A stretch of DNA of 64,000 bases. It comes from Ignavibacteria bacterium. GTDB lineage: Bacteria > Bacteroidota > Ignavibacteria > Ch128b. This document shows positions 1 to 26,300 of the stretch, piece after piece. Location of the stretch: NCBI GenBank assembly GCA_016873845.1, contig VGVX01000005.1, forward strand, positions 2,002 to 66,001, given 5' to 3'. A program made the translations under genes and the position numbers. Position 1 is the first letter of the stretch. Every line of letters starts with the position of its first letter. The notes beneath the pieces are model-generated. The model was not told where the DNA came from. It did no database searches and worked only from the letters and a program-made list of their open reading frames with translations.

Positions 1-3000
1 TTAATACTTTATACTGACAAACTTGCAGATGAACTTAAAGAACTTATTTCTGATACAACAAAACTTTTCTATTCTAGGGAAAGCATCTTCGAATTATTGA
101 AGGATGCAGAGAGAAAACAAAATTATAGATACCAATTTTTCAAGAATGAATATGAACCGATTGCTTGGACTAACCAGTTCTTCACATTTGATTTTCCAGT
201 TAAACTCTTGGCACAAGATAGTCTGATCACAATTAAAAAAGGCAATTTTCGGACGTTTGTTGCCTTCTACAAAAAAATATTCGAGCATTTTGAGGATAGC
301 TATTTCTTAGCCGGATACGAAAACATCGAAAACAATTACCCGATCAAAAATGAATACTTTACTGCCTCTTCATTGGAAAATGATTTTACAAGTGAATATG
401 AAACAAAAATTTCACTTAACCTGTCTGAAAATGCATCTCCTCGTTTAGATGGAAGAATATTTTCTCAGCAACTCAATCATGTTGACGGCTCGAGAGCAGG
501 ATTCATTTATATTAATCACCTTTCCAAGTCAGCATTTATCGAGCATTTAAAAAAATTGTTTTCCAATTTCCAGCAGCTTTTATTTTTATTGCTCATAGGA
601 ATTCTTTTCTTCTCTTTAATCAGAGATTTTCAGCATATCAATTCCAGACTTTCGAAGATTGCAGTCACAACAGCATTTATTTGGCTGATTCGGATTATTC
701 TATTTTATTTTCAATTTCCATCCAATTTCATTCAGAGCGAACTTTTCAATCCACTCTATTTTGCTTCAAGATTTGGATTCGGGATTGTTAAATCGCCAGG
801 AGAACTATTTATTACGGCTTCTGCTTTGCTGATCAACATGATTTACGTTTTTATGCTTTTCAGAAGGTGGTTAGTTGATCATTCCGATCTTTCTCAGAAA
901 TATTTCTCGAAGACTTTTATATCAATTTTGGGAGCTGTCTGTTTGCTTGTATTTCCATTATTGCTAAGAGGATTTGGTGCTGCAATACGTAGTTTTGTTT
1001 TTGATTCATCGATAAAATATTTTGAGTCAGCATCAATTCTGCCAAGTCTTCCTTTCCTTGTGATGCATATAAATGTGTTTCTAACCAGTACGAGCATGAT
1101 CATTGCTTCGCTGATACTGTATAGTTTCATATTTCGTGGGGTAAATCACTGGCATGAATTTAAAAATCAAATTAATATATCTCTTGTCTCAATAGGATTG
1201 GTAATAATTGCATGTATAATTTTTTTACTTGTTGATGGAAGCAGGCAGTTTACGTTTTTCTTCCTTGTTGTATTTGTGTTGCTGCTTGCCTTTTTCAGTT
1301 ATCAATTTCTTCAAGCTAAATTACCGGCGAATTTTAATATTATAATTTCAATATTAATATTCTCCTCACTTGTTGACATATCCATGCTGTTTCAGAAAAA
1401 CGATCTATTGGAAAGAGAACTTCAAAGAAATCTTACTTATGAATTAGTAAGACCGCAGGATCAATTAACTAATTTTGTATTGAATGAAACTCTGACTAGT
1501 CTTGGAAACAATAATGATCTCATTCAAGAGTTTTTGAAACGTGATGGAGAACAAAATTTTGAGTTAACTGCATTTACGCTATGGGTAAATAGTCTTCTAA
1601 GCAGCGAGGGGGTGAATTCAAATTTACAGTTACTGAATAAATTCGGAAATTTACTCGGTTCATTTGGGGTAGGAATTGACAATACAGATTATTTTCAGAA
1701 ATATTTCGATCCGAGGTTAATCTCACAACACACAATTTTTATAAATCAAAATCAGTATCCGAATAATATTTTTGGCGTCATGCCAATTCGTTTTAATGGC
1801 AGAATTCTTGGATTTGCGGCTCTAACGCTCGAAGTACCTTCCAATCGAAAAATAACTGCACATTTTAATCAATCAGGCACACCGAAGATTTTCAAAAATA
1901 TTCAGAGGGAACGAAATCCTATAGAACTCCTTCCAGATGCAGTGATCTATACCTTTTGGAAAAATGAATTAGTGCGTGTACGTGGAGAAGATATACCAGA
2001 AAGACGATCTCTTCCAAAAGAAATTAACGAAACGCCAATAGAATCTGGTAGTTATGAGCTTTGGTCAAGTGAAAAATTCGGTAATCGATCTTATTCGACA
2101 TACTACCTCCTCTACGAGGAGAATGCTGTAGGAAAAATTCTTGCTGTGAGTGTTGAAAAGAAAAGTTTTCTGTGGCATGTTTTTAATTTTTTTAGGCTAA
2201 TCTTTATTCATTTTTTAATTACCGTGACGGTTATATTATTGATAGCGGTATCTTTATTCCTTAAGGGTTATCGGTTCCGCATTCGATTCAAAACGAAACT
2301 ATTTGCCGGCTTGCTCATCGTAACGATAATCCCTTTAATCATACTAGCTTATTATAATCGTGAAAATTCTCTCGAAAGCTGGAATCAATCAACAAGAAAT
2401 GAATTACGAAAGGATCTTGATGTAATTGAAATTTATCTAGGGGATATTTTTTCAAAAGGGATATCTTCAACAAACGCGAGTGAATTAAATCGTATCTCAA
2501 AGAAACTTCAAGTTGATTTTAATGTCTATGTGAATGACAGGCTTTTTTATTCTACGCAGAAAAAACTTTACGATCTAAACTTTTTCCAAGCGGGAATGAG
2601 CTCAGAGATTTATAATGAATTATTTTTGAATGATAAATCTTATTCATTTGATTTTGAATACGTTGGAGATTATAAATACTTAGTTGGATTTAAGAAATTT
2701 TCAGTCGAGGGACTTGGTCAAATCCTCATTTCCAGCCCAACAATTTATCGTCAGGAAAAAATTCAAAAGGAAATAGCTCAAATCGACGCGTTTATTTTCG
2801 GTGCTTACTCTTTCACGCTAATTCTTATTTTTATTTTTGGAAGTTTTATTGTTGAAAGAATTTCCAAGCCGATAAGTGATTTAACAGAAGCTACAAAAAA
2901 AGTCTCTCAGGGTGATCTTCAGGTTCAGCTTGCAACAAATGAAACAGGAGAAGTTGGGGATTTAATTGAAGCTTTTAATTCCATGATCGCAGACTTGGAA

Positions 3001-3702
3001 GAAAGCCGAAAAAACTTAGCCCAAGCTGAAAGGGAGTATGCTTGGAAGGAAATGGCAAAACAAGTTGCTCATGAAATTAAGAATCCGCTCACGCCAATGA
3101 AATTGTCTCTACAGCATCTCCAAGTTCTTTATACGGAAAACCGAAAAGAATTTGGGAAACTGTTTGGCAAAGTATCAGTTAGCTTAGTTGAGCAAATTGA
3201 AGCGTTAAACCGAATCACAAACGAGTTCTCTCATTTTGCGCGAATGCCAAAACGTAATGTTGAAAAATGCGATCTTTTAGAAATTATAAAAGAATCAATT
3301 TCGCTGTTTGCATCGCAATGCAAAATGGAATTTAATTTTGTTAAGGATGAACAATTTTTTATCAGCGGCGACCGTGAGGAGCTTAAGAGAATCTTTATAA
3401 ATATTTTTAAAAACTCTATTCAAGCGGATAGTACTACTGTAAAAGTCAAGCTCTTTAAAGATGTGAAATATAATTTTATTAATATTGAAGATGATGGGCA
3501 CGGGATATCTCAAGAAAATTTGAGTAAGATTTTTGAGCCGAATTTTTCTACGAAAAGCGAGGGAATGGGATTGGGATTGTCGATGATTAAGAAAATAATT
3601 GATGAGATGGAGGGAACAATTGAAATCGAAAGCAAGGAAAATAATGGAACGATAGTCAGAATAATTATTCCTGTTTTCACCGAAACACAAACCGAAGATT
3701 AG
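1..3702 (+). CDS. Multi-membrane-module sensor histidine kinase. It has a 7TM-type N-terminal membrane region, a second TM/periplasmic module, then HAMP, HisKA and HATPase_c domains. The 5' end is truncated by the window edge.
   Basis: The reading frame is open from nt 1, with no stop codon before the TTG at 97 given in the ORF track. The H-box is HEIKNPLTPM. The ATP-binding G-box region is DDGHGIS...GLGLSM. A HAMP-like segment follows the last TM helix. No response regulator gene is adjacent. Confidence 0.85.
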   Translation, partial: LILYTDKLADELKELISDTTKLFYSRESIFELLKDAERKQNYRYQFFKNEYEPIAWTNQFFTFDFPVKLLAQDSLITIKKGNFRTFVAFYKKIFEHFEDSYFLAGYENIENNYPIKNEYFTASSLENDFTSEYETKISLNLSENASPRLDGRIFSQQLNHVDGSRAGFIYINHLSKSAFIEHLKKLFSNFQQLLFLLLIGILFFSLIRDFQHINSRLSKIAVTTAFIWLIRIILFYFQFPSNFIQSELFNPLYFASRFGFGIVKSPGELFITASALLINMIYVFMLFRRWLVDHSDLSQKYFSKTFISILGAVCLLVFPLLLRGFGAAIRSFVFDSSIKYFESASILPSLPFLVMHINVFLTSTSMIIASLILYSFIFRGVNHWHEFKNQINISLVSIGLVIIACIIFLLVDGSRQFTFFFLVVFVLLLAFFSYQFLQAKLPANFNIIISILIFSSLVDISMLFQKNDLLERELQRNLTYELVRPQDQLTNFVLNETLTSLGNNNDLIQEFLKRDGEQNFELTAFTLWVNSLLSSEGVNSNLQLLNKFGNLLGSFGVGIDNTDYFQKYFDPRLISQHTIFINQNQYPNNIFGVMPIRFNGRILGFAALTLEVPSNRKITAHFNQSGTPKIFKNIQRERNPIELLPDAVIYTFWKNELVRVRGEDIPERRSLPKEINETPIESGSYELWSSEKFGNRSYSTYYLLYEENAVGKILAVSVEKKSFLWHVFNFFRLIFIHFLITVTVILLIAVSLFLKGYRFRIRFKTKLFAGLLIVTIIPLIILAYYNRENSLESWNQSTRNELRKDLDVIEIYLGDIFSKGISSTNASELNRISKKLQVDFNVYVNDRLFYSTQKKLYDLNFFQAGMSSEIYNELFLNDKSYSFDFEYVGDYKYLVGFKKFSVEGLGQILISSPTIYRQEKIQKEIAQIDAFIFGAYSFTLILIFIFGSFIVERISKPISDLTEATKKVSQGDLQVQLATNETGEVGDLIEAFNSMIADLEESRKNLAQAEREYAWKEMAKQVAHEIKNPLTPMKLSLQHLQVLYTENRKEFGKLFGKVSVSLVEQIEALNRITNEFSHFARMPKRNVEKCDLLEIIKESISLFASQCKMEFNFVKDEQFFISGDREELKRIFINIFKNSIQADSTTVKVKLFKDVKYNFINIEDDGHGISQENLSKIFEPNFSTKSEGMGLGLSMIKKIIDEMEGTIEIESKENNGTIVRIIIPVFTETQTED

Positions 3703-3705
3703 TTC

Positions 3706-6700
3706 GTGGCACATTCCTTAAGCAGCCAGCAGAAAAAAGCATTACTCATTGACAGGAATATTGCATTAACAGCAAATGCAGGTTCAGGAAAGACTTTTAT
3801 TTTGTCGAGAAGGTTTTTGGAGACGGTTATTTCCAAAAATATTTCGGTGAATCAAATTGCAGCAATAACGTTCACTGAAAAAGCTGCGGGTGAACTATTG
3901 GCAAAAATCTCAAATGATATTGATGAATTTTTATTGAGTGAAATTCCTCAAAAGCTTCGCTTGCAAATTCAAAAATTTCGCGATTTAATTTTAACCGCGA
4001 AGATCTCCACAATCCATTCCTTTTGCTCTGACATTCTAAAAAAATATCCAATTGAAGCTGAGATCGACACACAATTCTCAATTATTGAAGACTCAGAGAA
4101 AAAGGAAATAATTACCTCTGCCGTTGATAAAGCTGTTAAAGACTTGTTGAGCGAGAACATTGTCAAAGATGTGCTTCGAATTTTTGGGAAGCAGCATCTC
4201 TTCGAAAAGCTTGAGAGAATGATCAATAAAAGATATTTAACCGAGAAAGTGCTAGATAATCTCTATGAAAATGACTTTGAACACTTCAATAAAAAGATTG
4301 ATGAACTATACATAAAATATTTCTCAAGCGAATCCTCATGCAAAAGAGTCCAAAATCTAGTCAGCCAGCTGAGAAATGTTTTGCCTTTTATGATTGATTC
4401 TATGAGTGCGGAACTTTCGGATCTGATCGCGAGTGTCAAAAAGAACATTGAAGTTCGTAACTTCCAAGAAGTATTTCTTCTTCTTTCAGAATTAAATCAG
4501 ATTGTATTTGTCAAAAATTGGGATGGTATCCGAAAGAAATCTTTCGTCAAGGGAAAAATCGATTGTACTGAGTTTGATGAATTTATCGAACGACTTTTTT
4601 TTGAGATGGAATACTTTTCACCATTTATCAATGCGGAGTATTATGATGAGATCAATGAAAGGAAAAGATTTTTTCTCACACTAGCGATCATTGAAATATA
4701 TGACTCAGCTTTACAGATTTTTGAAAGTGAAAAAAATAAACTTGGGTTTTTGGATTACGATGATCTTTTAATTAAAACTGATCGACTGTTAGATAATGAA
4801 ATTGTTCGAAACGAAATCTCAAATTCGTTAAAGTACATCTTAGTAGATGAGTTTCAGGACACAGATCAGCTTCAGTATTCAATATTAAAAAAAATTACAA
4901 ATGATTTTGACGAGGAACATTTTCTATTCATTGTTGGAGATGAGAAGCAAAGCATTTATGGTTTTAGGAACGCTGACATTAAAGTCTTTCAAAATGCCAA
5001 AAGTGGAATTTCGAATTCTAATTCATTAATTGCAGAGTTTGATTTCTATGATGAAAAAGTTGAATTAATTAATAACGAAACTTCCGGAATTATCACTCTT
5101 CCAGAAAACTATCGATTGCTTCCGAACTTAATTGCATTTAATAATTATTTCTTCAAATCACTAATGGAAGATAATATTGATTTGAGTGCCGTAAATTTTG
5201 ATGGAGAGGTTTCATATTCTGATTTAGTGCATGCAAGAAATAATAACGCAAATGGAATAGTTGAACTGCTTATCAATAACGAATCAATTGAGGATGAAGT
5301 TGAAAAGGTGGCGGATAAAATTGAATGGCTCGTCAACAGCGAATATAAAATATTTACTAAAGATAAAAGTGCGAATTCTGAAATCGAGCAATCAGTAAAT
5401 TATCGAGACATAGGTATTTTATTCCGTGAAAAATCTTTTTTCAAAAAGTTCGAACGTGAATTTGCGAAGAGAAAAATTCCATATACTATCACCGGAGGGA
5501 AAGGTTATTATCAAACTGAGGAAATAACAGATTGGATCCAATATTTTAAATTCCTATCGGATTTGAAAAATGATGTTGCACTCGCAGCTGTACTGCGATC
5601 ACCATTTTATGCTCTGAGCGATAATATACTATTTGAGATTAGCGAAATCCAAAATGGCGATAGTCTGTTCGAAAAATTTATTATGTATGCAAAAAACTTC
5701 GATAAAAGTGAAGTTTTGAATGTATATGATTCATTAAACCGGCACTTAAACGTTGCTGGTAGAATTACACTACCAAACTTGATTCAACTCATATTAAATG
5801 ATACGGGTTATTTGGGTGTGATTGCATCTGATCAAAGAGCAAACCAAATCAATGCAAATGTACTGAAGCTTCTTGATAATGCAAGAGAGTTTGAAGCGAA
5901 AGGATTTTCCGATCTTTTCGATTTTACAGAATATTTAAAATTTAATTGGAAGGAGGATACTGAGGTCGGTGAGGCTCCAATTAATGAAATGTCTAACAGT
6001 GTAAAACTGCTTACAATTCATCAAGCCAAAGGTTTGGAGTTCCCAGTAGTTATTATCCCGCGGTCAGATATGCCAATCAAAAACTACCAACTTAATTACG
6101 GACAGCTTGATGTTGAAGAGAACACGGGATTAATATTTAAAATTAACTCAGGAACTGAAAACATACATACTAAATCTTCTGTTCTCGGTTATCACATCAA
6201 AAGTCAAAATAATTACAATGAAGCACTAAGAGTTTTTTATGTAGCTTTAACAAGAGCAAGAGACTATTTGATAATTTCCGGAACTGGCCACGATAAGTTG
6301 TTTACACAGAATTCTCTGTTGAAGAAAATTCTTGAGATACTTGAAGTAGCTGATTTCAGGACTAATCGTAAGCTTACTCGCAATGTTAAGCTGAGTTCTA
6401 TATATCTAGCTGAGAAAGAATCGAAGTTACTTGAGAGGAATTTTCAACTTGAAGTTAATTTGAATCCGGCTGTTAAAAAAGTAACAAAGAAGATGGAAAC
6501 AATTGGGAAACAAAAAGCTTCTTCGGCAAAAGAGATTGCGATTTCTGCATTAACAGATTTGCCAAAAGGTGAATTTTTCACAGCTACACAGTTAAATGCC
6601 TTTTCTCTCTGCCCGACAAAATATTTAATTAAGTATCAAATTGGCCTCGATGAAAATTTTTCAAGCTCAGACCCGACTTTGAACCTCACTGGAAATTCCA

Positions 6701-7323
6701 ATTTGGCTGGTCCAAGATTTGGAAATCTCGTTCATCAAATAATGGAAAAGATCACCTCTCATCAAATAACCGAAGTCGAGATAATTAAACTCATTGATAG
6801 CTCATTGATTGAATATCGGGAGTTTTCAGCTGCCGAGGTTCGAAGCGAATTAATCTCAGTGCTGAATAAAATCGTTAATTCAGAAATATTTAAGACGATT
6901 TTTTCAAAACCAAATTTTCTTGTTGAACAAGAAATTAATTCAAAATTTGGCGATCAGTTTTTATGCGGCATTATCGATCGCATCGTAATAGAAGAAAACA
7001 AGATTACAATTGTTGATTTTAAGACTGACACTTTTATTCTCCAAGAGTATGAGAAGAAAGTTTCGGATTACTTAATCCAAATGGGATTTTATTCTGTTCT
7101 AGTAAAAAATTATTTTAGGTCGATCAAGGAGATAGAACTTGTTTTGTTCTTTATTCGTTATCCTGAAAAACCATTTATAAAAAGCTTTAGCTTCGATGAA
7201 ATATTACAGTATGAAAATCTATTTAAGACGAACTTAAATAAAATCATTAACGGACAATTCGAAAAGAACATAACTCATTGTTCTGAATGTGAATTTTACT
7301 ATGGCAGAAGCTGCCTTCTTTAG
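3706..7323 (+). CDS. UvrD/PcrA-family superfamily-1 helicase fused to a C-terminal PD-(D/E)XK nuclease (RecB/AddB/Cas4-like) with a Cys4 iron-sulfur signature.
   Basis: Walker A motif is ANAGSGKTF and motif II is VDEFQDTD. The C-terminus carries a Cys in CPTKY, the nuclease motifs IIDRIV...IVDFKTD, and a terminal CSECEFYYGRSC. The start codon is GTG. Confidence 0.8.
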   Translation: MAHSLSSQQKKALLIDRNIALTANAGSGKTFILSRRFLETVISKNISVNQIAAITFTEKAAGELLAKISNDIDEFLLSEIPQKLRLQIQKFRDLILTAKISTIHSFCSDILKKYPIEAEIDTQFSIIEDSEKKEIITSAVDKAVKDLLSENIVKDVLRIFGKQHLFEKLERMINKRYLTEKVLDNLYENDFEHFNKKIDELYIKYFSSESSCKRVQNLVSQLRNVLPFMIDSMSAELSDLIASVKKNIEVRNFQEVFLLLSELNQIVFVKNWDGIRKKSFVKGKIDCTEFDEFIERLFFEMEYFSPFINAEYYDEINERKRFFLTLAIIEIYDSALQIFESEKNKLGFLDYDDLLIKTDRLLDNEIVRNEISNSLKYILVDEFQDTDQLQYSILKKITNDFDEEHFLFIVGDEKQSIYGFRNADIKVFQNAKSGISNSNSLIAEFDFYDEKVELINNETSGIITLPENYRLLPNLIAFNNYFFKSLMEDNIDLSAVNFDGEVSYSDLVHARNNNANGIVELLINNESIEDEVEKVADKIEWLVNSEYKIFTKDKSANSEIEQSVNYRDIGILFREKSFFKKFEREFAKRKIPYTITGGKGYYQTEEITDWIQYFKFLSDLKNDVALAAVLRSPFYALSDNILFEISEIQNGDSLFEKFIMYAKNFDKSEVLNVYDSLNRHLNVAGRITLPNLIQLILNDTGYLGVIASDQRANQINANVLKLLDNAREFEAKGFSDLFDFTEYLKFNWKEDTEVGEAPINEMSNSVKLLTIHQAKGLEFPVVIIPRSDMPIKNYQLNYGQLDVEENTGLIFKINSGTENIHTKSSVLGYHIKSQNNYNEALRVFYVALTRARDYLIISGTGHDKLFTQNSLLKKILEILEVADFRTNRKLTRNVKLSSIYLAEKESKLLERNFQLEVNLNPAVKKVTKKMETIGKQKASSAKEIAISALTDLPKGEFFTATQLNAFSLCPTKYLIKYQIGLDENFSSSDPTLNLTGNSNLAGPRFGNLVHQIMEKITSHQITEVEIIKLIDSSLIEYREFSAAEVRSELISVLNKIVNSEIFKTIFSKPNFLVEQEINSKFGDQFLCGIIDRIVIEENKITIVDFKTDTFILQEYEKKVSDYLIQMGFYSVLVKNYFRSIKEIELVLFFIRYPEKPFIKSFSFDEILQYENLFKTNLNKIINGQFEKNITHCSECEFYYGRSCLL

Positions 7324-7364
7324 AAGTTAAAGACCATTTTGATAATTTTTACTAAAGGGTACTA

Positions 7365-8204
7365 ATGAGAAAATATATTTTATTACAATTATTTATATCA
7401 GCACTTTTTGGGAATATAAGTATTGCTGCCGATTCCTTGAAGGTCTGTTGCGATCCTCCGTCAATAGCGATTGAAGACAACTCATTTTTTATAGAGGAAG
7501 CTTATAATCAAGAACCAGGAGTTGTTCAGCATATTTTTACCGGTCAATATGCATGGAAATATTTTAAATCCGTTGGATTGTCATTTACACAAGAATGGCC
7601 GATTGGAGACGAGCATCACCAAATAAGTTTTTCAATCCCATTTACTAGCTTACTTTCGAACTCTTCATCAGGTGTTGGAGACATTATGCTGAACTATAGG
7701 TATGAACTCACTGGAAGAGATGACTTTGCAGTTTCCGCTCCAAGATTTTCAATAATATTTCCTACTGGCAAGGTTGAAGGCGGGTTTGGATCTGGTAATC
7801 TTGGATATCAAGTCAATCTGCCGGTCAGTAAACGATGGAATGATTTTCTTGTTAATCATTTTAATGTGGGCTTTACTTTTTTTCCAAATGCACGAACCAA
7901 AACTTCAGCTGGTGTTGAAGCAAAAAATGATATTTATTCATTCGACATTGGAGGGAGTGCTATTTGGCTAGTTCGCCAAAATTTTAATCTTATGTTTGAA
8001 ATTTTACACTCATATTTTGTTGAAATTGATGCAAGTGGAAAAAAACAAAAAATGAATGTGACTATTTTCAATCCTGGTTTTCGATTTGCGATTGATATTA
8101 GTGATCTGCAGATTGTACCTGGTTTATCAATTCCATTGAACTATCAAAGCAAGAAGATTACGCCCGAGCTGTTCTTCTACTTATCATTTGAACATAATTT
8201 TTAA
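7365..8204 (+). CDS. Secreted hypothetical protein, probably an outer-membrane beta-barrel, possibly of the MetA-pathway/phenol-degradation-like transporter type.
   Basis: It has an N-terminal signal peptide, alternating amphipathic beta-strand character, and a C-terminal aromatic residue (…SFEHNF). Confidence 0.45.
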   Translation: MRKYILLQLFISALFGNISIAADSLKVCCDPPSIAIEDNSFFIEEAYNQEPGVVQHIFTGQYAWKYFKSVGLSFTQEWPIGDEHHQISFSIPFTSLLSNSSSGVGDIMLNYRYELTGRDDFAVSAPRFSIIFPTGKVEGGFGSGNLGYQVNLPVSKRWNDFLVNHFNVGFTFFPNARTKTSAGVEAKNDIYSFDIGGSAIWLVRQNFNLMFEILHSYFVEIDASGKKQKMNVTIFNPGFRFAIDISDLQIVPGLSIPLNYQSKKITPELFFYLSFEHNF

Positions 8205-8219
8205 ACTGAAATTTTTTAC

Positions 8220-9569
8220 ATGAATGAAAAGCGGATAAAAATTCTAAAAAATGGCGAGATAAAATTTGGGCCTGTAGTTTATTGGATGAGCCGCGATCAG
8301 CGAGTAAATGATAATTGGGCTTTGCTGTATGCACAACAAAAAGCAATAGAGAATAAACAAAATTTAATTGTGATCTTTAATTTGGTCCCAAAATTCTTAG
8401 AGGCATCAATTCGTCAATATGGTTTCATGCTTAAGGGATTAGAAGAAGTCGAAAAAGAGTTGAGTCGTTTCAACATTTCGTTTTCTTTATTAATCGGCGA
8501 TCCAGCACAAAACATTGTTAAATATGTTAACGACACAAAAGTATCTGTTCTGATTTCCGATTTTTCACCGCTAAAGATTGTTCGAGAATGGAAAAACAAA
8601 GTCGCGCTAAAAATCAAAAATCCATTTTACGAAATCGATGCTCACAACATAGTTCCATGTTGGGAAGCATCTGACAAACTCGAATTTGCTGCGTATACTA
8701 TCAGACCGAAAATCAATAGAAAATTAAATGAATATCTAATCGATTTTCCAAATTTGAAAAAGATGCCAAGGAAAAATAAAAATTACTCCAATCCCGTGAA
8801 TTGGTCACACACAACCAATTCACTTCGAATTGATTTCTCGATCCCCGAAGTTGACTGGCTGCAATCCGGGGAGAAAGCTGCTTCTATGCAACTGAATCGT
8901 TTTATCGAGAAAAAACTTAATCAATATGCTGAGAATAGAAATGATCCGGCTCTGAATTTTCAGTCGCAGCTTTCACCGTACATTCATTTTGGACAAATCT
9001 CTGCTCAACGTATTGCATTGACAATTCAAAACTTGAATAAGAATGTTCAATCCACAGAAGCGTTTCTTGAAGAATTGATTGTACGACGGGAATTATCTGA
9101 TAATTTTTGTTATTACAATTCCGATTATGATTCTGTTAAAGGCTTTCCTGATTGGGCAAAAAAAACGTTAAATGAACATAGGAACGATAAGAGAGCTCAT
9201 CTGTATTCAATTGAACAATTTGAAAAATCTCAAACACACGATAAACTTTGGAATGCTGCACAACAAGAAATAGTCCAAACTGGAAAAATGCATGGCTATA
9301 TGAGAATGTACTGGGCAAAAAAGATTCTTGAGTGGAGTAAGTCACCAGAACAAGCACTCGAAACAGCTATTTATCTAAATGATAAATACTCACTTGATGG
9401 ACGCGATCCGAATGGATATACAGGATGTGCATGGTCAATTGGGGGAGTTCATGATCGAGCATGGGGAGAAAGAGAAGTTTTTGGTAAAATCCGCTATATG
9501 AACTACAATGGCTGTAAAAGAAAATTTGATTTAGATAAATATATCTCTGCATTTCTGAATACATTATAA
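8220..9569 (+). CDS. phr: Deoxyribodipyrimidine photolyase, class II (CPD photolyase).
   Basis: The N-terminal motif VVYWMSRDQRVNDNWALLYAQ is characteristic of class II photolyases. Length is about 450 aa and the C-terminal FAD-binding region is conserved. Confidence 0.85.
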   Translation: MNEKRIKILKNGEIKFGPVVYWMSRDQRVNDNWALLYAQQKAIENKQNLIVIFNLVPKFLEASIRQYGFMLKGLEEVEKELSRFNISFSLLIGDPAQNIVKYVNDTKVSVLISDFSPLKIVREWKNKVALKIKNPFYEIDAHNIVPCWEASDKLEFAAYTIRPKINRKLNEYLIDFPNLKKMPRKNKNYSNPVNWSHTTNSLRIDFSIPEVDWLQSGEKAASMQLNRFIEKKLNQYAENRNDPALNFQSQLSPYIHFGQISAQRIALTIQNLNKNVQSTEAFLEELIVRRELSDNFCYYNSDYDSVKGFPDWAKKTLNEHRNDKRAHLYSIEQFEKSQTHDKLWNAAQQEIVQTGKMHGYMRMYWAKKILEWSKSPEQALETAIYLNDKYSLDGRDPNGYTGCAWSIGGVHDRAWGEREVFGKIRYMNYNGCKRKFDLDKYISAFLNTL

Positions 9570-9646
9570 CACTCTTGTTTTTATTCTAACCTGGCACAAG
9601 CTTCTTAAGCTGCTTGACACTATTAAACTTTTTCATTATATTAAAA

Positions 9647-9679
9647 ACATACAAAACGAACATAACGAAGATAACAAAT
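9647..9679 (+). promoter_or_regulatory. Three tandem approximately 11-bp direct repeats (ACATACAAAAC / GAACATAACGA / AGATAACAAAT) immediately upstream of the CarH-like gene. They are a candidate operator.
   Basis: Read directly from the sequence. CarH-type repressors are known to bind tandem 11-bp direct repeats that overlap their promoters. The match to the published consensus is weak. Confidence 0.2.
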
Positions 9680-9680
9680 A

Positions 9681-10580
9681 TTGCAAATCTCAAATTATAA
9701 ATATATTTCAACCAGAGAAGTCGCGGCTATGTTGAACGTAACAGAGACCACAGTCAAGCGTTGGGCAGAAAGGCAATTGATTAATTGTTCAAAAACCATT
9801 GGAGGACATCGCAAGTTTGAACTCAAGGAAGTCCGAGACTTCGCTCAAAAAAACTCAATACCGATTTCTGGTATGACCGCTCCGCCTTTAAGTCAACATC
9901 AAAAAGAGAAACTTGGCTATGCGATCTATTCCAGTAATTTTAAAACTATATCAGAAATATTCTTCGAGGAGGCATTGCAAGGTGATCGTGAAGGACTCCT
10001 TGATTTAATGATCTATCTACACAAGAACCAGATTCAATTTTCAGTTATCGTTGATGAAATCATTCGGCCTGCCATGGTCGAAATTGGAATTAAGTGGGAA
10101 AGAGGAGAATTAGGCGTCAATCAAGAACACACTGCATCAGAATCTGTAAAATTGGCAGTAGCGAGATTTGCAGCTCAAATGTTTAATCAAAAGAAAAAAA
10201 ATCTGAAAGTTATCTGTGCATGTGTTGAAAGCGAACAGCACGACTTAGGAATTCAATTTCTATTTCACGAATTAGTTCGATGCGGGTATGAAGTAACTTA
10301 CATGGGTGCAAATACACCTTTTGAGTCTTTAAAAGATGAGATTGCAAGTTCAAAACCGAATATAGTTTTCCTTTCGGCAACATCACCGAACATTTCACAG
10401 CGGAAAATTAAAAGCGAAATAGAGTCTCTTTCTCGAGAATGCAAAAAACTAAAATCAAGATTAATTCTTGGAGGAATTTATATTGAAAAACTCAATAACA
10501 AAAATTTGATATCTACCGAAACAGCATTTTCGATTACTGAGGCAGTTAAAATCATTAGAAAACAGAAAGGAAAGTTGTAA
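9681..10580 (+). CDS. carH: CarH/LitR-like light-responsive transcription regulator: a MerR-type helix-turn-helix (HTH) domain plus a cobalamin (B12)-binding domain.
   Basis: The N-terminal HTH is STREVAAMLNVTETTVKRWAE. The C-terminal B12-binding Rossmann fold carries the E-x-H-x-x-G motif (ESEQHDLGI). The start codon is uncertain: TTG at 9681, or ATG at 9729. Confidence 0.7.
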   Translation: MQISNYKYISTREVAAMLNVTETTVKRWAERQLINCSKTIGGHRKFELKEVRDFAQKNSIPISGMTAPPLSQHQKEKLGYAIYSSNFKTISEIFFEEALQGDREGLLDLMIYLHKNQIQFSVIVDEIIRPAMVEIGIKWERGELGVNQEHTASESVKLAVARFAAQMFNQKKKNLKVICACVESEQHDLGIQFLFHELVRCGYEVTYMGANTPFESLKDEIASSKPNIVFLSATSPNISQRKIKSEIESLSRECKKLKSRLILGGIYIEKLNNKNLISTETAFSITEAVKIIRKQKGKL

Positions 10581-10691: not shown

Positions 10692-12977
10692 ATGAAAAAT
10701 ATAATTAATTACTTGATTGTACTTATTTTATTTACAACAGAGATTTTCTCCTAAAATATTGAAACGGGAATCATTCAGGGAAAAGTTATTGACCGAACAA
10801 CAAAGGGGCCGAATATCGCTGCTAATGTATTAGTAGTTGGAACACTCTTTGGTGCGGCAACTAATTTGGATGGAAAATTTTCCATAAAAAATATTCCAGT
10901 CGGCAGCTATCAGATAAGAGCAAGCGCAATCGGTTATTCCTCGAGAATAAAATCAGATTTGATTGTTAGTACTGCTAAACCATCCGTTGTTGAATTTGAA
11001 TTGCTTGAAACAGTCATCGAAATAGAAGCAATAACTGTAACATCAGATTTATTTCAAACCGCACCGACCGAAGTAAATAGTATTACAAATTTCAGTTATG
11101 AGGAAATTCGGAGGGCACCTGGTGGTTTTGAAGATGTTGTCAGAGCTTTATCAGTATTGCCTGGTGTGGCGATAGCAGATCCTGGACGAAACGATTTAAT
11201 TGTTCGTGGAGGCGCACCATCTGAAAATCTCTTTTTAGTTGATGGAATGGTTGTCCCAAATATAAATCATTTCGGCAGTCAAGGGGCGACAGGCGGACCA
11301 TTGAGCTTTGTAAATTTAGATTTTGTGGAGGAATCCTCTTTTTCAACTGGAGGTTTTTCGGCAATTTATGGAGATAAACTTTCATCGGTATTACAGATTA
11401 AATTACAAGATGGAAGAAGCGACCGCATTGGGGGTAAGGGTACAATTTCTGCAACGCAGTTTGGATTTAATCTTGAAGGACCTCTGTCGAGCAATTCCGA
11501 TTTTATTTTTTCTGTTAGGAGAAGTTATCTTGATTTTATTTTCAAAGCTGCTGGTTTTGGATTTGTTCCAGAATATTATGACGTTCTCTCGAAGTTCAAT
11601 TATATACTCGACAACAATAATTCGTTTTCGTTTCTTTTCATAAGTGCTTTCGATAATGTCAAATTTTTTAATGAGACTGCAGATCAAAGATTCAGTAATT
11701 CACGGGCATTGGGAAGCGCTCAAACCCAATACGTAACAGGTATATCTTATCGGCATCTTTTAAAGAAGGGATTTTTCGATATAAGTCTAAATAGAAATTT
11801 TATTGATTTTAATACTTCACAAAGAGATTCACTATTAAATCCGATTTTCTTAAATGAATCACGAGAAGGAGAAAACACTTTAAAATTAGATTTTGTTTAC
11901 AAGCTTTCACCAATGACAGAAATAAATTTCGGTGCACAAATAAAGCAGATTAAATTCAAAACTGATGTTAAACTTCCTTCGTTCTTAACGACATTCGGTG
12001 ATACTTTGGAAATCTATTCGTTAAAAGCTGAAGAGATGTTCTTCAAATCAAACATTTATGCTCAATACAGCAACATGTTTTTCAATAGGATTAGATTAAA
12101 TCTTGGAATACGTACAGATTATTTCAGTGCGATTGAACAAAAATTCACTTTCGGTCCGTGCCTCTCTTTATCTTATGCATTAACACCAATTTCAAATTTG
12201 AATTTCAGTACTGGAATCTATCACCAAAATCCATCTTACATTTGGCTTGCTGCTGATGAAGTGAATAGGAAGTTAAATCAAATCCAAGTTGAACATTATA
12301 TATTAGGAGTTGACCATAGATTAAGAGACGATATAATAATGAAAGCTGAAGCTTTCTATAAAAATTATTCTAATTACCCTGCAAGTCTGCTTCGAAATTA
12401 TGTTGTTCTTGCAAATACTGGGGCTGGTTTCGCAGGTGCAGAAGATAATTTTTCCTCATTTGGATTAGAAAAACTATCCAGTGGCGGAAAAGGTTTTTCT
12501 CATGGGATAGAATTCTCATTACAGAAAAAATCCTCAGTCATTCCCCATTATGGAATTTTCAGTTTAACGTATGGTGAAACTTACTTCACTGGATTGGAGG
12601 GGATTGAACGCGCTGGAACTTATGATCAGCGTTTGATAATTAATCTTAGTGCAGGCTATATCTTCAACAAAAAATGGGAAGCGAGTGTAAAGTTCCGATA
12701 TGCTTCAGGCAAACCAAAAACTCCATTTAATTCTGATGGTTCACAAACTATCGCCCTATATAATACTGAAAGACTACCAAATACTCATTCTCTTGACATT
12801 CGAATAGACCGAAGATGGAATTTCCACGGTTGGAATCTAATCGCTTACCTTGATGTGCAAAATATTTATAACAGGAAAAATGTTAGTGTGAACCGCTGGA
12901 ATCCACGAACAAAATCCGCAGATGAAGGATCGGCAATTGGAATTTTACCCTCAATTGGTGTGAGCATAGAATTTTGA
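10692..12977 (+). pseudogene. TonB-dependent receptor (CarboxypepD_reg domain, plug, beta-barrel) interrupted by an in-frame TAA at 10752-10754, directly after the signal peptide.
   Basis: ATG at 10692 encodes MKNIINYLIVLILFTTEIFS, then TAA, then in the same frame NIETGIIQGKVIDRTT... (CarboxypepD_reg). The track ORF at 10866..12977 has no signal peptide and starts inside that domain. Confidence 0.7.
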
Positions 12978-18112: not shown

Positions 18113-18865
18113 TTATATTTCGGAGTTAATAAAATCCGCCAACAATTCCGCTTGCTTTAGAACTGTATCAATTGCTTTTTGTTGCTTATCGGGAGGATAT
18201 CCATATTTTGTAAGAGTACGTTTAACAAGTACCATCAGTTTTGCTCTAGCACTCTCACGAATAGTCCAATCAATCGTTGTGTTCTTTTTAACCTTATCAG
18301 CAATTTCTCTTGCAATAGTTTTTAATGTTTCATCTCCCAAAACTTTTACCGCACTGTCATTCGTTTCAAGCGCATTGTAAAATGCAACTTCTTCAGTTGA
18401 TAAACCAAGCTTCTCACCTTCTTTGTCAGATTCTTTTACTTCCTTGGCAATCCGTATAAGCTCCTCAATTATCTGCGCTGTAGTTAACAAATTATTTTGA
18501 TATTTCTTTATTGCTGATTCAAGCATTTCTAAGAAAGCTTTGCTCTTTACAAGGTTTGTTCTTAACCGTGATTTGATTTCATCGTTCAGTATCTTCTTCA
18601 ATAGTTCAATCGCAAGATTTTTATGGTTCATCCCTTGAACTTCCAACAGAAACTCATCAGATAAAATTGAAAGCTCCGGCTTTTCAATTCCGGCAGCTTC
18701 AAAAATATCAATGACTTTATCTGAAGTAATCGCTTGATCAACTATTTGTTTGATAGCAGTTTCAAAGCCCTCACCCCCGCTTTCCTGTCCGAAAATAGAA
18801 ATACGATCTTTAGGATTAAGAGCGAGTTTCTGTCGGGGCTGTCTCAAAAGGTTCTCTCGATACAT
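18113..18865 (-). pseudogene. hsdR: Type I restriction enzyme HsdR, C-terminal domain fragment only (DUF3387-like). It is preceded by an 8-aa HsdM-like remnant, ISIFGQES.
   Basis: The segment ...VLVKRTLTKYGYPPDKQQKAIDTVLKQAELL is the conserved C-terminus of HsdR. The helicase/nuclease N-terminal 700 or more residues are missing. Confidence 0.75.
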
Positions 18866-19665
18866 CCGTCAAACGACGGATTACTCGAGAACCTTTTAAT
18901 TTTTGCGGTTTTCGAGTTTTTTCTGACAAAGTCAGAAAAATTATCGAGAAAACACAAGTTATGAGACAGCCTCTTAGAGGGGGCTTTGTAATGATCAGAA
19001 TGCGCCTCAATAAACTTTTCACTTTGCACAAACATACCACCGCTGCCGCAGCAAGGATCGAACACTCTTCCTTCATAAGGTTCAAGCATTTCAACAAGCA
19101 ATCTTACAACGCAGGTTGGAGTATAGAATTGACCGCCTTTCTTTCCTTCTGCTAAAGCAAACTGCCCTAAGAAATATTCAAACACTTTCCCAAGAATATC
19201 TTTACTCTGAGCTTCTTTTGTTCCTAAGGTTGCAGTGCTTAATAAATCTATTAGACTTCCCAAACTTGCCTTATCAAGTTTTTCTTGAGAATAGACTTTT
19301 GGAAGAACATCCCTAAGCGACTTTGGATTATCTTTCTCAATCGCTACCATAGCATCATCAATATCTTTTCCAATTGTAGGAAGCTTTGCACGACCTTGCA
19401 GCCATTTCCATCTTGCTGAGGGTGGAACATAAAATACATTCTCGGCTGTATATTCATTTTTATCTTCCGGATCAGCTCCTTCGTTTTTTAGTTCAACCAA
19501 TTTTTGATAATGTTCCTCAAAAGCATCGGATATATACTTTAGAAATATCAAACCTAAAACAACGTGCTTGTATTCTGCAGCATCCATATTCTTTCGGAGT
19601 TTATCAGCAGCTTTCCAAAGCTTTTTTTCGAGAGGTTCTTCAGTATTTGATTTCTTTTTCTTCAT
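18844..19665 (-). pseudogene. hsdM: Type I restriction-modification methyltransferase HsdM, N-terminal fragment. Homology ends near nt 18980 and the rest of the ORF is read-through into the palindromic insert.
   Basis: The HsdM N-terminal domain, GQFYTP, and AdoMet motif I ([20 protein letters not shown]) are present. The NPPF catalytic motif and the C-terminal half are absent. Confidence 0.8.
18850..18957. repeat. Nested palindromic element of about 110 bp (MITE/REP-like). An outer palindrome of about 44 nt centres on ATCCGTCAAACGACGGAT. Inside it are a 10-bp stem (CTCGAGAACC/GGTTTTCGAG) and a 9-bp stem (TTTTCTGAC/GTCAGAAAA).
   Basis: Read directly from the sequence. It lies exactly at the junction between the hsdM fragment and the hsdR fragment. 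Confidence 0.6.
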
Positions 19666-23347: not shown

Positions 23348-26300
23348 TTGAAGAAGTTAATTTTACATCTGCCAATTTTATTCATCCTATCGGCAAGCTT
23401 TTTTGCTTCAGGATTTGTTTTTGATCCCAAGCAGGAAGAGTTGTACGATAAATACTTATTGTTCGATGCAATTTTTCAAGAGATAATTGTAGAGAGTTTT
23501 AAGCATGATGATTCTCGCACGATTCCTAATGAAACAGTTTCATTTACTGATCATTCGCAGGAATCAAGGGGATTTTATCTCCCATGGTTGTCGCAAACTG
23601 CACTCTCCGATACAAATGATTTTGATAAGAGTGAAAAGATCGATGATGAAGGTGAACCGCAAGATGAGAATCTCCTCCTAACTGATACTACTCAAGTTGG
23701 ACTTGATTCTGCAGCAATACTCGATTCCATTCTTAAAGCCGATACTCTTGCACTGGATTCAACAGCACGCTTAATTCAGTTTAAACACATAAGAAAAGAT
23801 CCGATAACCGTTCCACTATTCAAGAAAAGGAAATATTCACTTTTTCTCGATAAGCCTGAAGGAAGTATTGTCCGTACAGTAAAATTAGATTCAACAGGCA
23901 GATTTGTTGAAATTCGAGAAACTCTTGATGGAAAAGATTATAGAGTAAGATTATTAATTCCATTGGAAGATTATGTTCAGCTTCGATTGGCTTATATCGA
24001 TAGAAAGAATTGGGAGGAACTTGCGTACAAGTATGAAGCAAAACTTGGCAAGAAAGAGCTGGGAGACATTTTTGCGTCGATCACAAATATTGATATACCA
24101 ATTCCCTCAAATCCTGTTCTTAGTATTTTCGGTCCTCCGAAAATCAATCTCCGGATAAGCGGTGCAGTTGATATTCGTGGTGCTTGGCGTAACGAAAGTA
24201 CTGAGGGAATTACTGCTTCACGGCTCGGAAATGTTCGCAATGAACCAGATTTCAAACAAGATGTGCAGATAAATATTAGCGGTACAATTGGCGATAAGCT
24301 GAATATAACTGCTGACTGGAACACTCAGAATACATTTGAATACGAAAACCAGCTAAAGATCCGTTACACAGGATACACAGATGAAATTGTTCAAAGTGTA
24401 GAAGCTGGAAACGTTTCATTACAGACTTCTCCCCTAGTTGGAGGTGGTGAAGCGTTGTTCGGAGTCAAATCCCGATTTCAATTTGGTCCATTGATGCTGA
24501 CTGCAATTGCAAGTCAGAAGAAAGGCGAAGTGAAAGAAAAAAGTTTAAGCGGTGGAGCAGAAGCGCAGACTTTTCAAAAGCGTGTGTATGATTATTCAAC
24601 AAATCATTATTTTCTTGATACAGTTTATGCAGATACATCGCGGGACTTAAATCTTTTCAATAAATATTATGGCAATGCAACTCCAATTGAAATTCAATAT
24701 TACCGAATTAAAGATATTGAAATATGGAAAACAGTTACGGGAATAATCAATCCTAAAGAAAGATTAGTTAATGCATATATTGATCTTCCTTCAAGAACAA
24801 AGACTTCAAAATATCCCGCATCTCTGCGAGGTGAAGTTAGTGTAGTTCCAGGAAGAGTGGAGACAGGAAGATTCATTAAACTTGAACCTTCTGAATATAT
24901 TTTGCATGAAGCGACAGGATATGTGTCCTTCAGAACTCAAGTAAATGAAACGGATGCAATAGCAGTTGCATACAGAATGGAGGGCGATCCAGGACCTGAG
25001 AATGATTTATATTTCGGGGAGTTCATTGCGGACGTAACTGATACAGTCACGCTCATTTTAAAATTAATAAAACCGGCTAACCTGCAGCCGCAGTTTCGCA
25101 CAGCATGGAAACTTCAGCTTAGAAATATTTATCCGCTTGGTGTGCGTGACGTGAAGGAAGATGGATTTGCATTTGATATTAAATACGGAATTACTCTTGA
25201 TGACGCTCGGAATGATATTGGTGGAGTGAAATTTTTGAATGCATTTGGATTGGATTTAATAGACGATTCAAAAAACGCTCGACCAGACGGCAAATTCGAT
25301 TTTTTACCGGGAAAAACAATTAATCTTTCAACAGGGGAAATAATTTTCCCTGTGCTCCAACCGTTCGGAAGGAATTTACCTTCCAGTCTTTCGGATACAC
25401 TCGCCTACTTGAAAGTCTATGATACGCTTCAAGTGTTCGCTAAACAAGATCGCGAGAAGGACAAATTCATTCTCGTTGGTCAATCCAAAGGAAGTTCCCG
25501 TAATTCATATAATCTTGGATTTAATATTGTAGAAGGGAGTGTTCGTGTTAAACTTGACGGAAGAGAATTGCTGCCTAATGCTGATTATATGGTAGACTAT
25601 AATACCGGACAGCTCATAATTCGGAATGAACAAGCACTTCTCCCAAATGCCGATCTAAGAATTACATATGAAGAAAATACTTTATTCCAATTAGCTGCAA
25701 AATCTTTATTGGGTTTGCGTGGAGAATTTAAATTTTCCAATAAAACTTTCTTAGGTTTTTCGATGTTGAATCTCAATCAGCAAACTTTAAGTGATAAAGT
25801 ACGAATTGGCGAAGAACCGCTTCAGAATTCAATTTATGGAATTGACGCACGAACAAGTGCCGATCTGCCATTCATTACCAAACTCTTAAACAATGTAATC
25901 TCAACACGCGAAATGTCTACTTTTGCATGGCGGGGTGAAGCCGCATATATCAATCCCGATCCTAACACAAAGAAAAGTACAATCATAAGTGATCAAGGAG
26001 AAAGTGTTGCTTATGTCGATGATTTTGAAGGAGCCAAACAAACACTTTCGATAGGAGTTCATTATACTTCGTGGAAAAACTTAAGTCCGCCTAAAACTAT
26101 TGAACGGCTTGGTGATATACCTGATTCAACCAAAATGGGATACAAAGCAAAAACATATTGGTACAACGAACTTCCGAGCAATGTTAGTGTTAAGGAAATC
26201 TGGCCACAGAAATCTGTTGCAAGAGGTGAAGATCATGTCACTGTCCTTGATTTGATTTATTCCCCATCCTCGAGAGGAGAGTTTAATTATAATCCATCTC

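Follow-up and report, generated by a model that had tools for sequence, protein, structure and literature searches.

A predicted B12-dependent light repressor with a BldC-like DNA-binding domain, and its probable operator, beside a class II photolyase gene in an Ignavibacteria genome

Introduction

When a gene for a B12-binding regulator of the light-sensing kind stands next to a gene for a DNA photolyase, it is tempting to assume that the one controls the other. The locus considered here raises the question of whether it does, and of what the regulator controls if it does not. The locus is part of a 64,000-nucleotide stretch of DNA from an Ignavibacteria bacterium (GenBank assembly GCA_016873845.1, contig VGVX01000005.1, positions 2,002 to 66,001 of the forward strand), called the window in what follows. 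B12-dependent light repressors of carotenoid and photolyase genes are well known. An original prediction for this locus, made from the letters of the DNA, held that the pairing of a class II cyclobutane pyrimidine dimer (CPD) photolyase with a CarH/LitR-type regulator implies light-induced DNA repair. The list of open reading frames (ORFs) confirms both genes, on the plus strand and in the same orientation, together with the peptides by which they had been described, VVYWMSRDQRVNDNWALL in the photolyase and ESEQHDLGI in the regulator. The analysis presented here points to a different regulated unit. The regulator is probably an adenosylcobalamin (AdoCbl)-dependent light-sensing repressor, with four tandem 9-bp repeats at its own promoter as its operator and with the regulator gene and a downstream TonB-type receptor gene as the unit that it controls, the photolyase lying outside.

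The cobalamin-binding sensor

The regulator scores above the Pfam cut-offs for HTH_17 (41.7 bits), MerR_1 (26.6 bits, cut-off 21.6), B12-binding_2 (42.3 bits), and B12-binding (32.5 bits), which bears out the original description of a MerR-type helix-turn-helix (HTH) joined to a cobalamin-binding domain. HTH_17 is the better fitting of the two HTH models. The first helix of the HTH is retained only if translation begins at the TTG at 9681; the public gene call begins at the ATG at 9729 and truncates it.

The best full-length match among solved structures is CtMerR of Chloracidobacterium thermophilum (WP_157850694; 8JBS in the dark state and 8JBT in the light state), with E=5.8e-28 over residues 9-268, which span both the DNA-binding and the sensor parts. 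CarH of Thermus thermophilus (TtCarH) ranks fifth or sixth, at E about 1e-9. An AlphaFold model of the regulator, built from 37 relatives, has a predicted local distance difference test score (pLDDT) of 90.1 and superimposes on 8JBS with a TM score of 0.90 and a root-mean-square deviation of 1.9 Å in Foldseek, better than on TtCarH or the photocobilins. The isolated B12 domain of CtMerR takes up AdoCbl, undergoes photolysis in green light, and passes from tetramer to monomer (FEBS J 2024, PMC11796333). The two proteins share their full-length architecture, including the type of N-terminal winged helix-turn-helix (wHTH), the fold of the B12 domain, and the GxxW, EH, GxxxP, and His-ligand positions. 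They differ in sequence, their B12 domains being only about 21% identical as aligned by Foldseek, and in the phylum of their hosts.

An alignment of 37 family members shows the photoreceptor positions to be invariant, namely G136, W139, E149, H150, E185, H187, G190, G209, and P213. G136, W139, E149, and H150 align to WHRGEIGVAEEH of TtCarH and WRRGELNIWEEH of CtMerR, with W139, E149, and H150 corresponding to W131, E141, and H142 of TtCarH. The original prediction had singled out the E-x-H-x-x-G motif as the source of the cobalt ligand, and the alignment agrees: H187 falls on H177 of TtCarH, where the motif reads ERHEIG, and on the ligand His of CtMerR (PMC11796333). Of the CtMerR signature of GxxW, EH, GxxH, and GxxxP, three elements are present, as G136-IK-W139, E149-H150, and G209-ANT-P213, and at the place of GxxH the regulator reads S184-EQ-H187. 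It is the Wx9EH/GxxW signature that sets photoreceptor B12 domains apart from enzymatic ones (PMC11796333). By sequence, then, the regulator has the cofactor pocket and its His ligand.

The CarH label holds in one sense and fails in another. The sensor is a CarH-type B12 photoreceptor domain. The protein as a whole is not a CarH/LitR orthologue, since it scores 56.4 bits against the CarH equivalog model NF052513 of NCBIfam, which has a cut-off of 400, and carries a DNA-binding domain unlike that of CarH. Judged from its sequence matches, the regulator belongs to the CtMerR-like branch of the CarH/LitR superfamily.

The DNA-binding domain

Residues 1-72 searched alone find CtMerR (6e-9), BldC of Streptomyces (6AMA, 7e-6), and RacA (0.065), and no CarH chain is among the matches at E<=1. 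BldC (6AMA/6AMK) binds tandem 9-bp direct repeats of the form AATTxxxx(C) head-to-tail; a YpG step is recognized by its Arg30, the DNA is kinked at Trp31, and the wing residues His46, Arg47, and Arg48 enter the AT-rich minor groove (PMC5859096). The regulator has R27, W28, H43, R44, and K45 at the positions of R30, W31, H46, R47, and R48, and in the family alignment the first four are invariant and the fifth is nearly so. The likeness stops short of membership in the BldC family, the regulator scoring 43 bits against the HTH_BldC model (NF033787), where the cut-off is 77. BldC is moreover a stand-alone protein of 68 residues that lacks an effector domain, whereas the wHTH of the regulator is fused to a B12 sensor module of 230 residues that supplies oligomerization. 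As far as sequence comparison goes, the DNA-binding domain resembles that of BldC and not that of CarH. In the CtMerR study the DNA-binding domain was removed; its authors state that the domain differs from that of CarH and that this implies "an alternative DNA-binding site" (PMC11796333). The DNA site and the regulon lie outside the scope of that study and are predicted here for the window family.

The predicted operator

The promoter of the regulator gene is the best promoter match between 6800 and 13200, with 11 of 12 positions agreeing. About 35 related loci have the same arrangement of TTGACA, a 17-nt spacer, and TATATT before the regulator gene, followed by 4-5 nt and then by three or four tandem 9-bp repeats. 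In the window the array begins 5 nt after the -10 box, and its last repeat overlaps the TTG start codon. The consensus over 36 loci is CGTaCAAAA CGAacATAT CgtctAaAA, with a repeat unit of CGnnCAwAw. A shift of four bases turns this unit into AwAw-CGnn-C, which has the same 9-bp period as the AATT-xxxx-C of BldC; in that register the window repeats, at 9644-9679, read AAAACATAC AAAACGAAC ATAACGAAG ATAACAAAT. The predicted target thus shares with the BldC site its tandem direct repeats and an AT-rich tetrad plus C, and differs from it in an additional conserved CG.

A position weight matrix (PWM) constructed without the window gives the window site 24.1 bits and places it first among 127,948 positions. 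The full matrix gives it 25.9 bits, against a null maximum of 12.4 +/- 2.9 bits over 50 Markov shuffles, the highest of which reached 23. For 20 of 26 closer loci, a matrix from the more distant ones has its locus-wide best match in the 80 nt that precede the regulator; the reverse test, trained on the closer loci, succeeds in 22 of 39 distant ones. Nearly all loci that have a strong operator-like site have a single one, located upstream of either the regulator or crtI, and in three loci where crtI precedes the regulator (L041, L047, L071) it lies directly before crtI. The 64-kb window holds no second operator-like site, and none lies 5' of the photolyase, barrel, or receptor genes. The next best match, of 14.5 bits at 23439-23465, falls in an ORF and does not exceed the null range.

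In work of 2015 attributed to Jost et al., the TtCarH operator is said to consist of 11-bp repeats over the -35 box; the window repeats differ in being 9 bp long and downstream of the -10 box. CarH-type 11-bp repeats were considered for this promoter and rejected, as the ACA triplets are not 11 bp apart (judged by eye, with no formal scan). The promoter is strong, its 17-bp spacer is optimal, and the repeats lie over the expected start site, all of which argues for repression by occlusion rather than MerR-style activation. Given the co-occurrence of array and regulator gene and the resemblance to the BldC mode, we infer that the regulator binds the 9-bp repeats. In the literature covered, which was incomplete, neither this operator nor CarH-like proteins from Bacteroidetes were found to have been described before.

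The -35 box is also overlapped by a 20-bp imperfect palindrome at 9597-9616, CAAGCTTCTTAAGCTGCTTG. It does not form a stable RNA hairpin (z = 0.35). No such palindrome was seen in other loci, and a second site of protein binding is one possible role for it.

Table 1. Coordinates of features in the window (nucleotide positions of the 64,000-nucleotide stretch unless residues are given).
Feature	Position	Strand	Description or basis
Promoter of the regulator, sigma-70 type	9614..9642	+	-35 TTGACA 9614-9619, 17-nt spacer, -10 TATATT 9637-9642
Predicted operator, four tandem 9-bp direct repeats	9648..9683	+	CATACAAAA 9648-9656, CGAACATAA 9657-9665, CGAAGATAA 9666-9674, CAAATATTG 9675-9683
Regulator gene	9681..10580	+	299 aa, TTG start; Pfam domains, 8JBS match
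Regulator wHTH, BldC/HTH_17 type	residues 8-59, nt 9702-9857	+	Pfam
Regulator four-helix bundle	residues 98-161	+	Pfam domains
Regulator Rossmann B12-binding domain	residues 176-266	+	Pfam domains
Photoreceptor motif W139-x9-E149-H150, with G136-x-x-W139	10095..10130	+	37-member family alignment
E185-Q-H187-D-L-G190, H187 the predicted lower axial Co ligand	10233..10250	+	37-member family alignment
G209-ANT-P213 (GxxxP)	10305-10319	+	37-member family alignment
TonB-type receptor gene (CarboxypepD_reg, Plug, barrel)	10692..12977	+	Pfam Plug and CarboxypepD_reg; in-frame TAA 10752-10754
Class II CPD photolyase gene	8220..9569	+	449 aa; TIGR00591 phr2 and PDB 2XRY/8OET matches
Outer-membrane beta-barrel gene	7365..8204	+	279 aa; PF13557-like family; neighbour only

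Gene neighbourhoods of the regulator family

When one genome per species was scanned, 278 relatives of the regulator came up, from which 80 loci were kept, all of them from metagenome-assembled genomes labelled Ignavibacteriota or "Bacteroidota". ORFs within 6 kb of the regulator were clustered, and the clusters were named with Pfam. Carotenoid genes are frequent neighbours (crtI at 18 loci, crtB at 14, crtE at 12, and crtZ at 9), as are genes for epimerase-DUF1731 proteins (22 loci), SRPBCC proteins (18), and DUF523/DUF1722 proteins (6). A photolyase stands beside the regulator at 25 of 81 loci, of class II in the closest relatives and of the FAD_binding_7 type in others. A small outer-membrane protein (OMP) of 167 residues is encoded at 14 loci, and fasciclin, DUF4397, and lipocalin proteins at a few. 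These are the usual contents of bacterial photoprotection regulons, a set with which the Pseudomonas LitR regulon was compared (PMC9758184). The photoprotection neighbourhoods strongly support a light-response role for the regulator family.

The synteny closest to the window is found at L005 and L009, where the genes run in the order photolyase, regulator, small OMP, receptor, SRPBCC, and DUF1722; those 3' of the regulator overlap or are closely spaced. The window itself has no crt, SRPBCC, DUF1722, small OMP, lipocalin, or fasciclin gene by tblastn over its 64 kb. As a side observation, secreted or envelope proteins recur in the light cluster of Ignavibacteriota together with SRPBCC, DUF523/DUF1722, and epimerase-DUF1731 genes; they are fasciclin, DUF4397, small OMP, lipocalin, and TonB-type receptor proteins (L005, L009, L012, L013, L017, L028, and others).

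The photolyase and its relation to the regulator

The photolyase is what it was taken to be. It scores 656.9 bits against TIGR00591 phr2 (cut-off 550) and matches solved class II enzymes, over its full length that of Methanosarcina mazei (2XRY, E=2e-163), from which it shows no notable difference, and 8OET (E~1e-163), as well as 3UMV (E=7e-140). On these matches it is an ordinary bacterial member of class II.

That the regulator directly represses this photolyase, and the barrel gene with it, in the dark is the strongest competitor of the arrangement proposed here, and we regard it as unlikely. In its favour, the photolyases adjacent to the regulator often lie downstream in the same operon (L011, L018, L019, L012, L028), regulators of the LitR family control phrB in Pseudomonas (PMC9758184), and no terminator is predicted between the photolyase and regulator genes of the window. 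The geometry of the locus speaks otherwise. In the window, as in L005, L008, and L009, the photolyase lies upstream of the promoter and operator of the regulator, and no second operator-like site was found in these loci. The photolyase follows the barrel gene by 15 nt on the same strand and is probably transcribed with it from upstream. At L005 and L009 no operator-like site lies 5' of the photolyase either, and a different gene precedes it by 6-12 nt. The photolyase is thus coupled, at 6-15 nt, to an unrelated upstream gene, and synteny of the barrel gene with the regulator is seen at no other locus.

The photolyase is therefore most likely not controlled through the predicted operator, and the claim that the pairing implies light-induced DNA repair finds no support in the window, the only operator-like site being 3' of the photolyase. 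The association of photolyase and regulator is evolutionary and probably functional. Since the only operator lies 3' of the photolyase, the visible regulated unit consists of the regulator and the downstream gene or genes co-transcribed with it.

The TonB-type receptor

The gene downstream of the regulator begins with an ATG at 10692 and a signal peptide, directly after which codon 21 is TAA. Beyond the stop the frame is intact to 12977, over 741 codons, and is 49-64% identical to its orthologues; an intact orthologue also matches TonB_dep_Rec_b-barrel. The position of the stop is Gln in most of 14 aligned orthologues and directly follows the signal-peptide cleavage site. The same TAA is present in five independently assembled metagenomes (L081-L085) that carry the same regulator protein and differ from the window at a few other positions. 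By their record names, the source samples (JGI 3300020084 to 3300020603, Ga0194110-26) look like a single freshwater lake series. Sequencing error was rejected as the cause, since five independent assemblies that differ elsewhere share the stop; its identity in all five indicates a real mutation that is fixed in the population. The gene is likely a pseudogene, and the disruption already remarked upon in the original prediction is real.

Among the polymorphisms that separate L081-L085 from the window are an ATG/GTG start codon at 10692 and a nonsynonymous Asn40/Ile difference at 10813. Orthologues are hydrophobic at the latter position, and the polymorphism fits, weakly, with relaxed constraint on the receptor. 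The stop has the look of a recent, population-wide pseudogenization, and the gene that it strikes is the sole cargo of the light operon.

At about 15 of 80 loci a receptor orthologue follows the regulator, always on the same strand, and no terminator is predicted between 10580 and the receptor gene. The receptor is the probable second gene of the operon of the regulator, and the suggestion that it may belong to the same regulon gains from this recurrence.

The partnership is not obligate. Among 80 metagenome loci anchored on the receptor, a light gene of any kind is close by in only about 16. Three of these have a photolyase immediately 3' of the receptor, two have crtI/crtB, and several have SRPBCC or the regulator. 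In 705 kb of such loci there are five operator-like matches of at least 16 bits, none of them before a receptor on its own strand. Stand-alone receptors without an operator, together with the small share of loci that have a light gene, led us to reject the receptor as an obligate partner. The recurrent recruitment of the receptor into the light operon is nevertheless real. At two of these loci an operator-like array lies just upstream of the receptor on the opposite strand (L153 4768-4794, minus strand; L151 678-704, minus strand), which suggests a divergently transcribed regulator operon beside the receptor.

A receptor next to a B12-dependent regulator had been taken as a hint of cobalamin uptake. 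Extended to the regulator, this would make it a sensor of cobalamin availability instead of light, a protein that does the work of a B12 riboswitch and, when B12 is plentiful, represses a TonB-dependent importer of cobalamin. We consider this improbable, in spite of the recurrence of the receptor downstream in the same operon and the need of all characterized relatives for B12 in DNA binding. The receptor scores 15.5 bits against the BtuB model NF007926, in the plug region only, where the cut-off is 836, and no solved relative was found beyond its N-terminal domain. Cobalamin riboswitches frequently accompany btuB genes and are not a strict requirement. An Rfam scan of the whole window brings only one tRNA to the gathering score and finds no cobalamin riboswitch or other RNA element. 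The receptor family is mostly unlinked to the regulator, the neighbourhoods of the regulator are dominated by carotenoid and photolyase genes, and the photoreceptor signature Wx9EH/GxxW (PMC11796333) is invariant in the family. A role of the receptor in cobalamin uptake is speculation.

Proposed mechanism

In the dark, AdoCbl would be bound with H187 below the cobalt and with W139, E149, and H150 capping the adenosyl group, and the protein would be a tetramer, by analogy with CtMerR and TtCarH. The four BldC-type winged-helix domains of this tetramer would align head-to-tail on the four repeats at 9648-9683, as the BldC-DNA structures and the anatomy of the operator suggest. The repeats extend over the expected start of transcription and the start codon, and their occupation would block RNA polymerase. 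Green, blue, or UV light would then break the Co-C bond, the oligomer would fall apart, the operator would be vacated, and the promoter would fire. Within the window, the derepressed unit would be the autoregulated regulator with the downstream receptor gene as cargo.

The scheme has much in common with the class I CarH/LitR systems, namely TtCarH (5C8D/5C8E), CarH of Myxococcus xanthus, and LitR of Bacillus megaterium. These share the succession of wHTH, four-helix bundle with Wx9EH, and Rossmann domain with ExHxxG, an operator of tandem direct repeats, and regulated carotenoid and photolyase genes, which in the window family are seen in relatives; an AdoCbl-dependent dark repressor released by light is the expectation for the window protein as well. 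Besides the low equivalog score, the differences are a DNA-binding domain that alone finds no CarH chain and the replacement of His132 by Glu.

Several observations weigh against the proposed light repressor and its operator. The binding of the repeats by the regulator rests on co-occurrence and on the BldC analogy, and the characterization of CtMerR used the B12 domain and not the full-length protein (PMC11796333). The first and fourth repeats of the window array have CA instead of CG. In the pocket, position 184 is Gly in most relatives and Ser in the window regulator, and in CtMerR the main chain of the GxxH Gly is in contact with the corrin (PMC11796333). His132 of TtCarH corresponds to Glu140 in the window regulator, in a column that is variable across the family and Arg in CtMerR, so that the bis-His light state cannot form through residue 140; with no His after the Trp in either protein, a TtCarH-style bis-His state is unlikely in both. 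A class II photolyase is downstream of the regulator in L012 and L028, indicating a regulatory tie in these relatives, and a tie may exist in the window as well. Finally, the only downstream cargo gene is disrupted by a nonsense codon; the module may be in decay, or the genes that it truly controls may be found beyond the window.

The least probable account, that the A-rich segment from the -10 box to the start codon is an mRNA leader element for translational or stability control rather than a DNA operator, draws on the location of the segment in the transcribed leader and its extension to the start codon in many loci, and can be set aside given that the leader at 9648-9740 has no predicted structure (minimum free energy -6.2 kcal/mol, z = +0.95, 167 of 200 shuffles folding at least as well) and no Rfam match, that the strict 9-nt phasing of the CG/CA steps is anchored to the -10 box and not to the start codon, and that period and composition match a known mode of protein-DNA binding, that of BldC.

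Other genes of the window

The barrel gene upstream of the photolyase had also been proposed as a member of the regulon, and this finds no support. It is beside the regulator at none of the 80 loci, and three close homologues adjoin unrelated genes (enoyl-CoA hydratase, CheW/MCP, and FeoB), on which grounds it was rejected as a regulon member. The barrel protein itself has no Pfam match; its family comprises 3541 homologues, a few of which match PF13557 (outer-membrane channel) or are named "transporter". A hairpin that resembles a terminator (7303-7315) and a weak promoter-like site (7319-7346) precede the gene.

Just before the barrel-photolyase pair, 3706-7323 encodes a 1205-residue UvrD helicase with a PD-(D/E)XK nuclease domain, AddA-like, that ends in this hairpin; an AddB partner was not seen among the annotated genes of the window. 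The start of this helicase gene is overlapped by 97-3702, which encodes a HAMP histidine kinase of 1201 residues. On the minus strand, 18113-19665 holds the remnant of a type I restriction-modification system, in which a 273-residue N-terminal HsdM fragment (HsdM_N and the first 75 positions of N6_Mtase) overlaps a 250-residue fragment that matches only the C-terminal part of an HsdR-like endonuclease (T1RH-like_C), with the appearance of an internal deletion. The segment 23348-31795 encodes SprA, the type IX secretion translocon, of 2289 residues, directly followed by a Response_reg-PglZ protein (PorX-like), in agreement with an origin of the window in the FCB group (Ignavibacteriota).

Significance

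The CtMerR-type branch was reported in 2024 (PMC11796333), and to it the present analysis adds the regulon of an Ignavibacteriota family, a predicted operator with its match to the BldC mode, and the point that the photolyase is no part of the unit under visible control. That a photolyase adjoins such a regulator is, by itself, no proof of light control.

These proteins could, more tentatively, form a distinct class in which a BldC-type winged helix is combined with a CarH-type sensor, the dark tetramer occupies four 9-bp repeats across the transcription start in head-to-tail fashion, and an Ignavibacteriota light regulon takes in carotenoid, photolyase, and envelope genes (TonB-type receptor, small OMP, fasciclin, DUF4397, and lipocalin). 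If this is true, the envelope proteins might serve light protection or the re-supply of photolysed cofactor.

Photoreceptors that use B12 are rare, and there is demand for them as optogenetic switches that respond to green light. The operator predicted here is concrete enough to be synthesized, as TTGACA-N17-TATATT followed by three or four copies of AwAwCGnnC, with BldC-like head-to-tail binding as its rationale. The module is otherwise biologically expected, and what it would mean for the group is that non-phototrophic Ignavibacteriota carry a B12-dependent photoprotection regulon.

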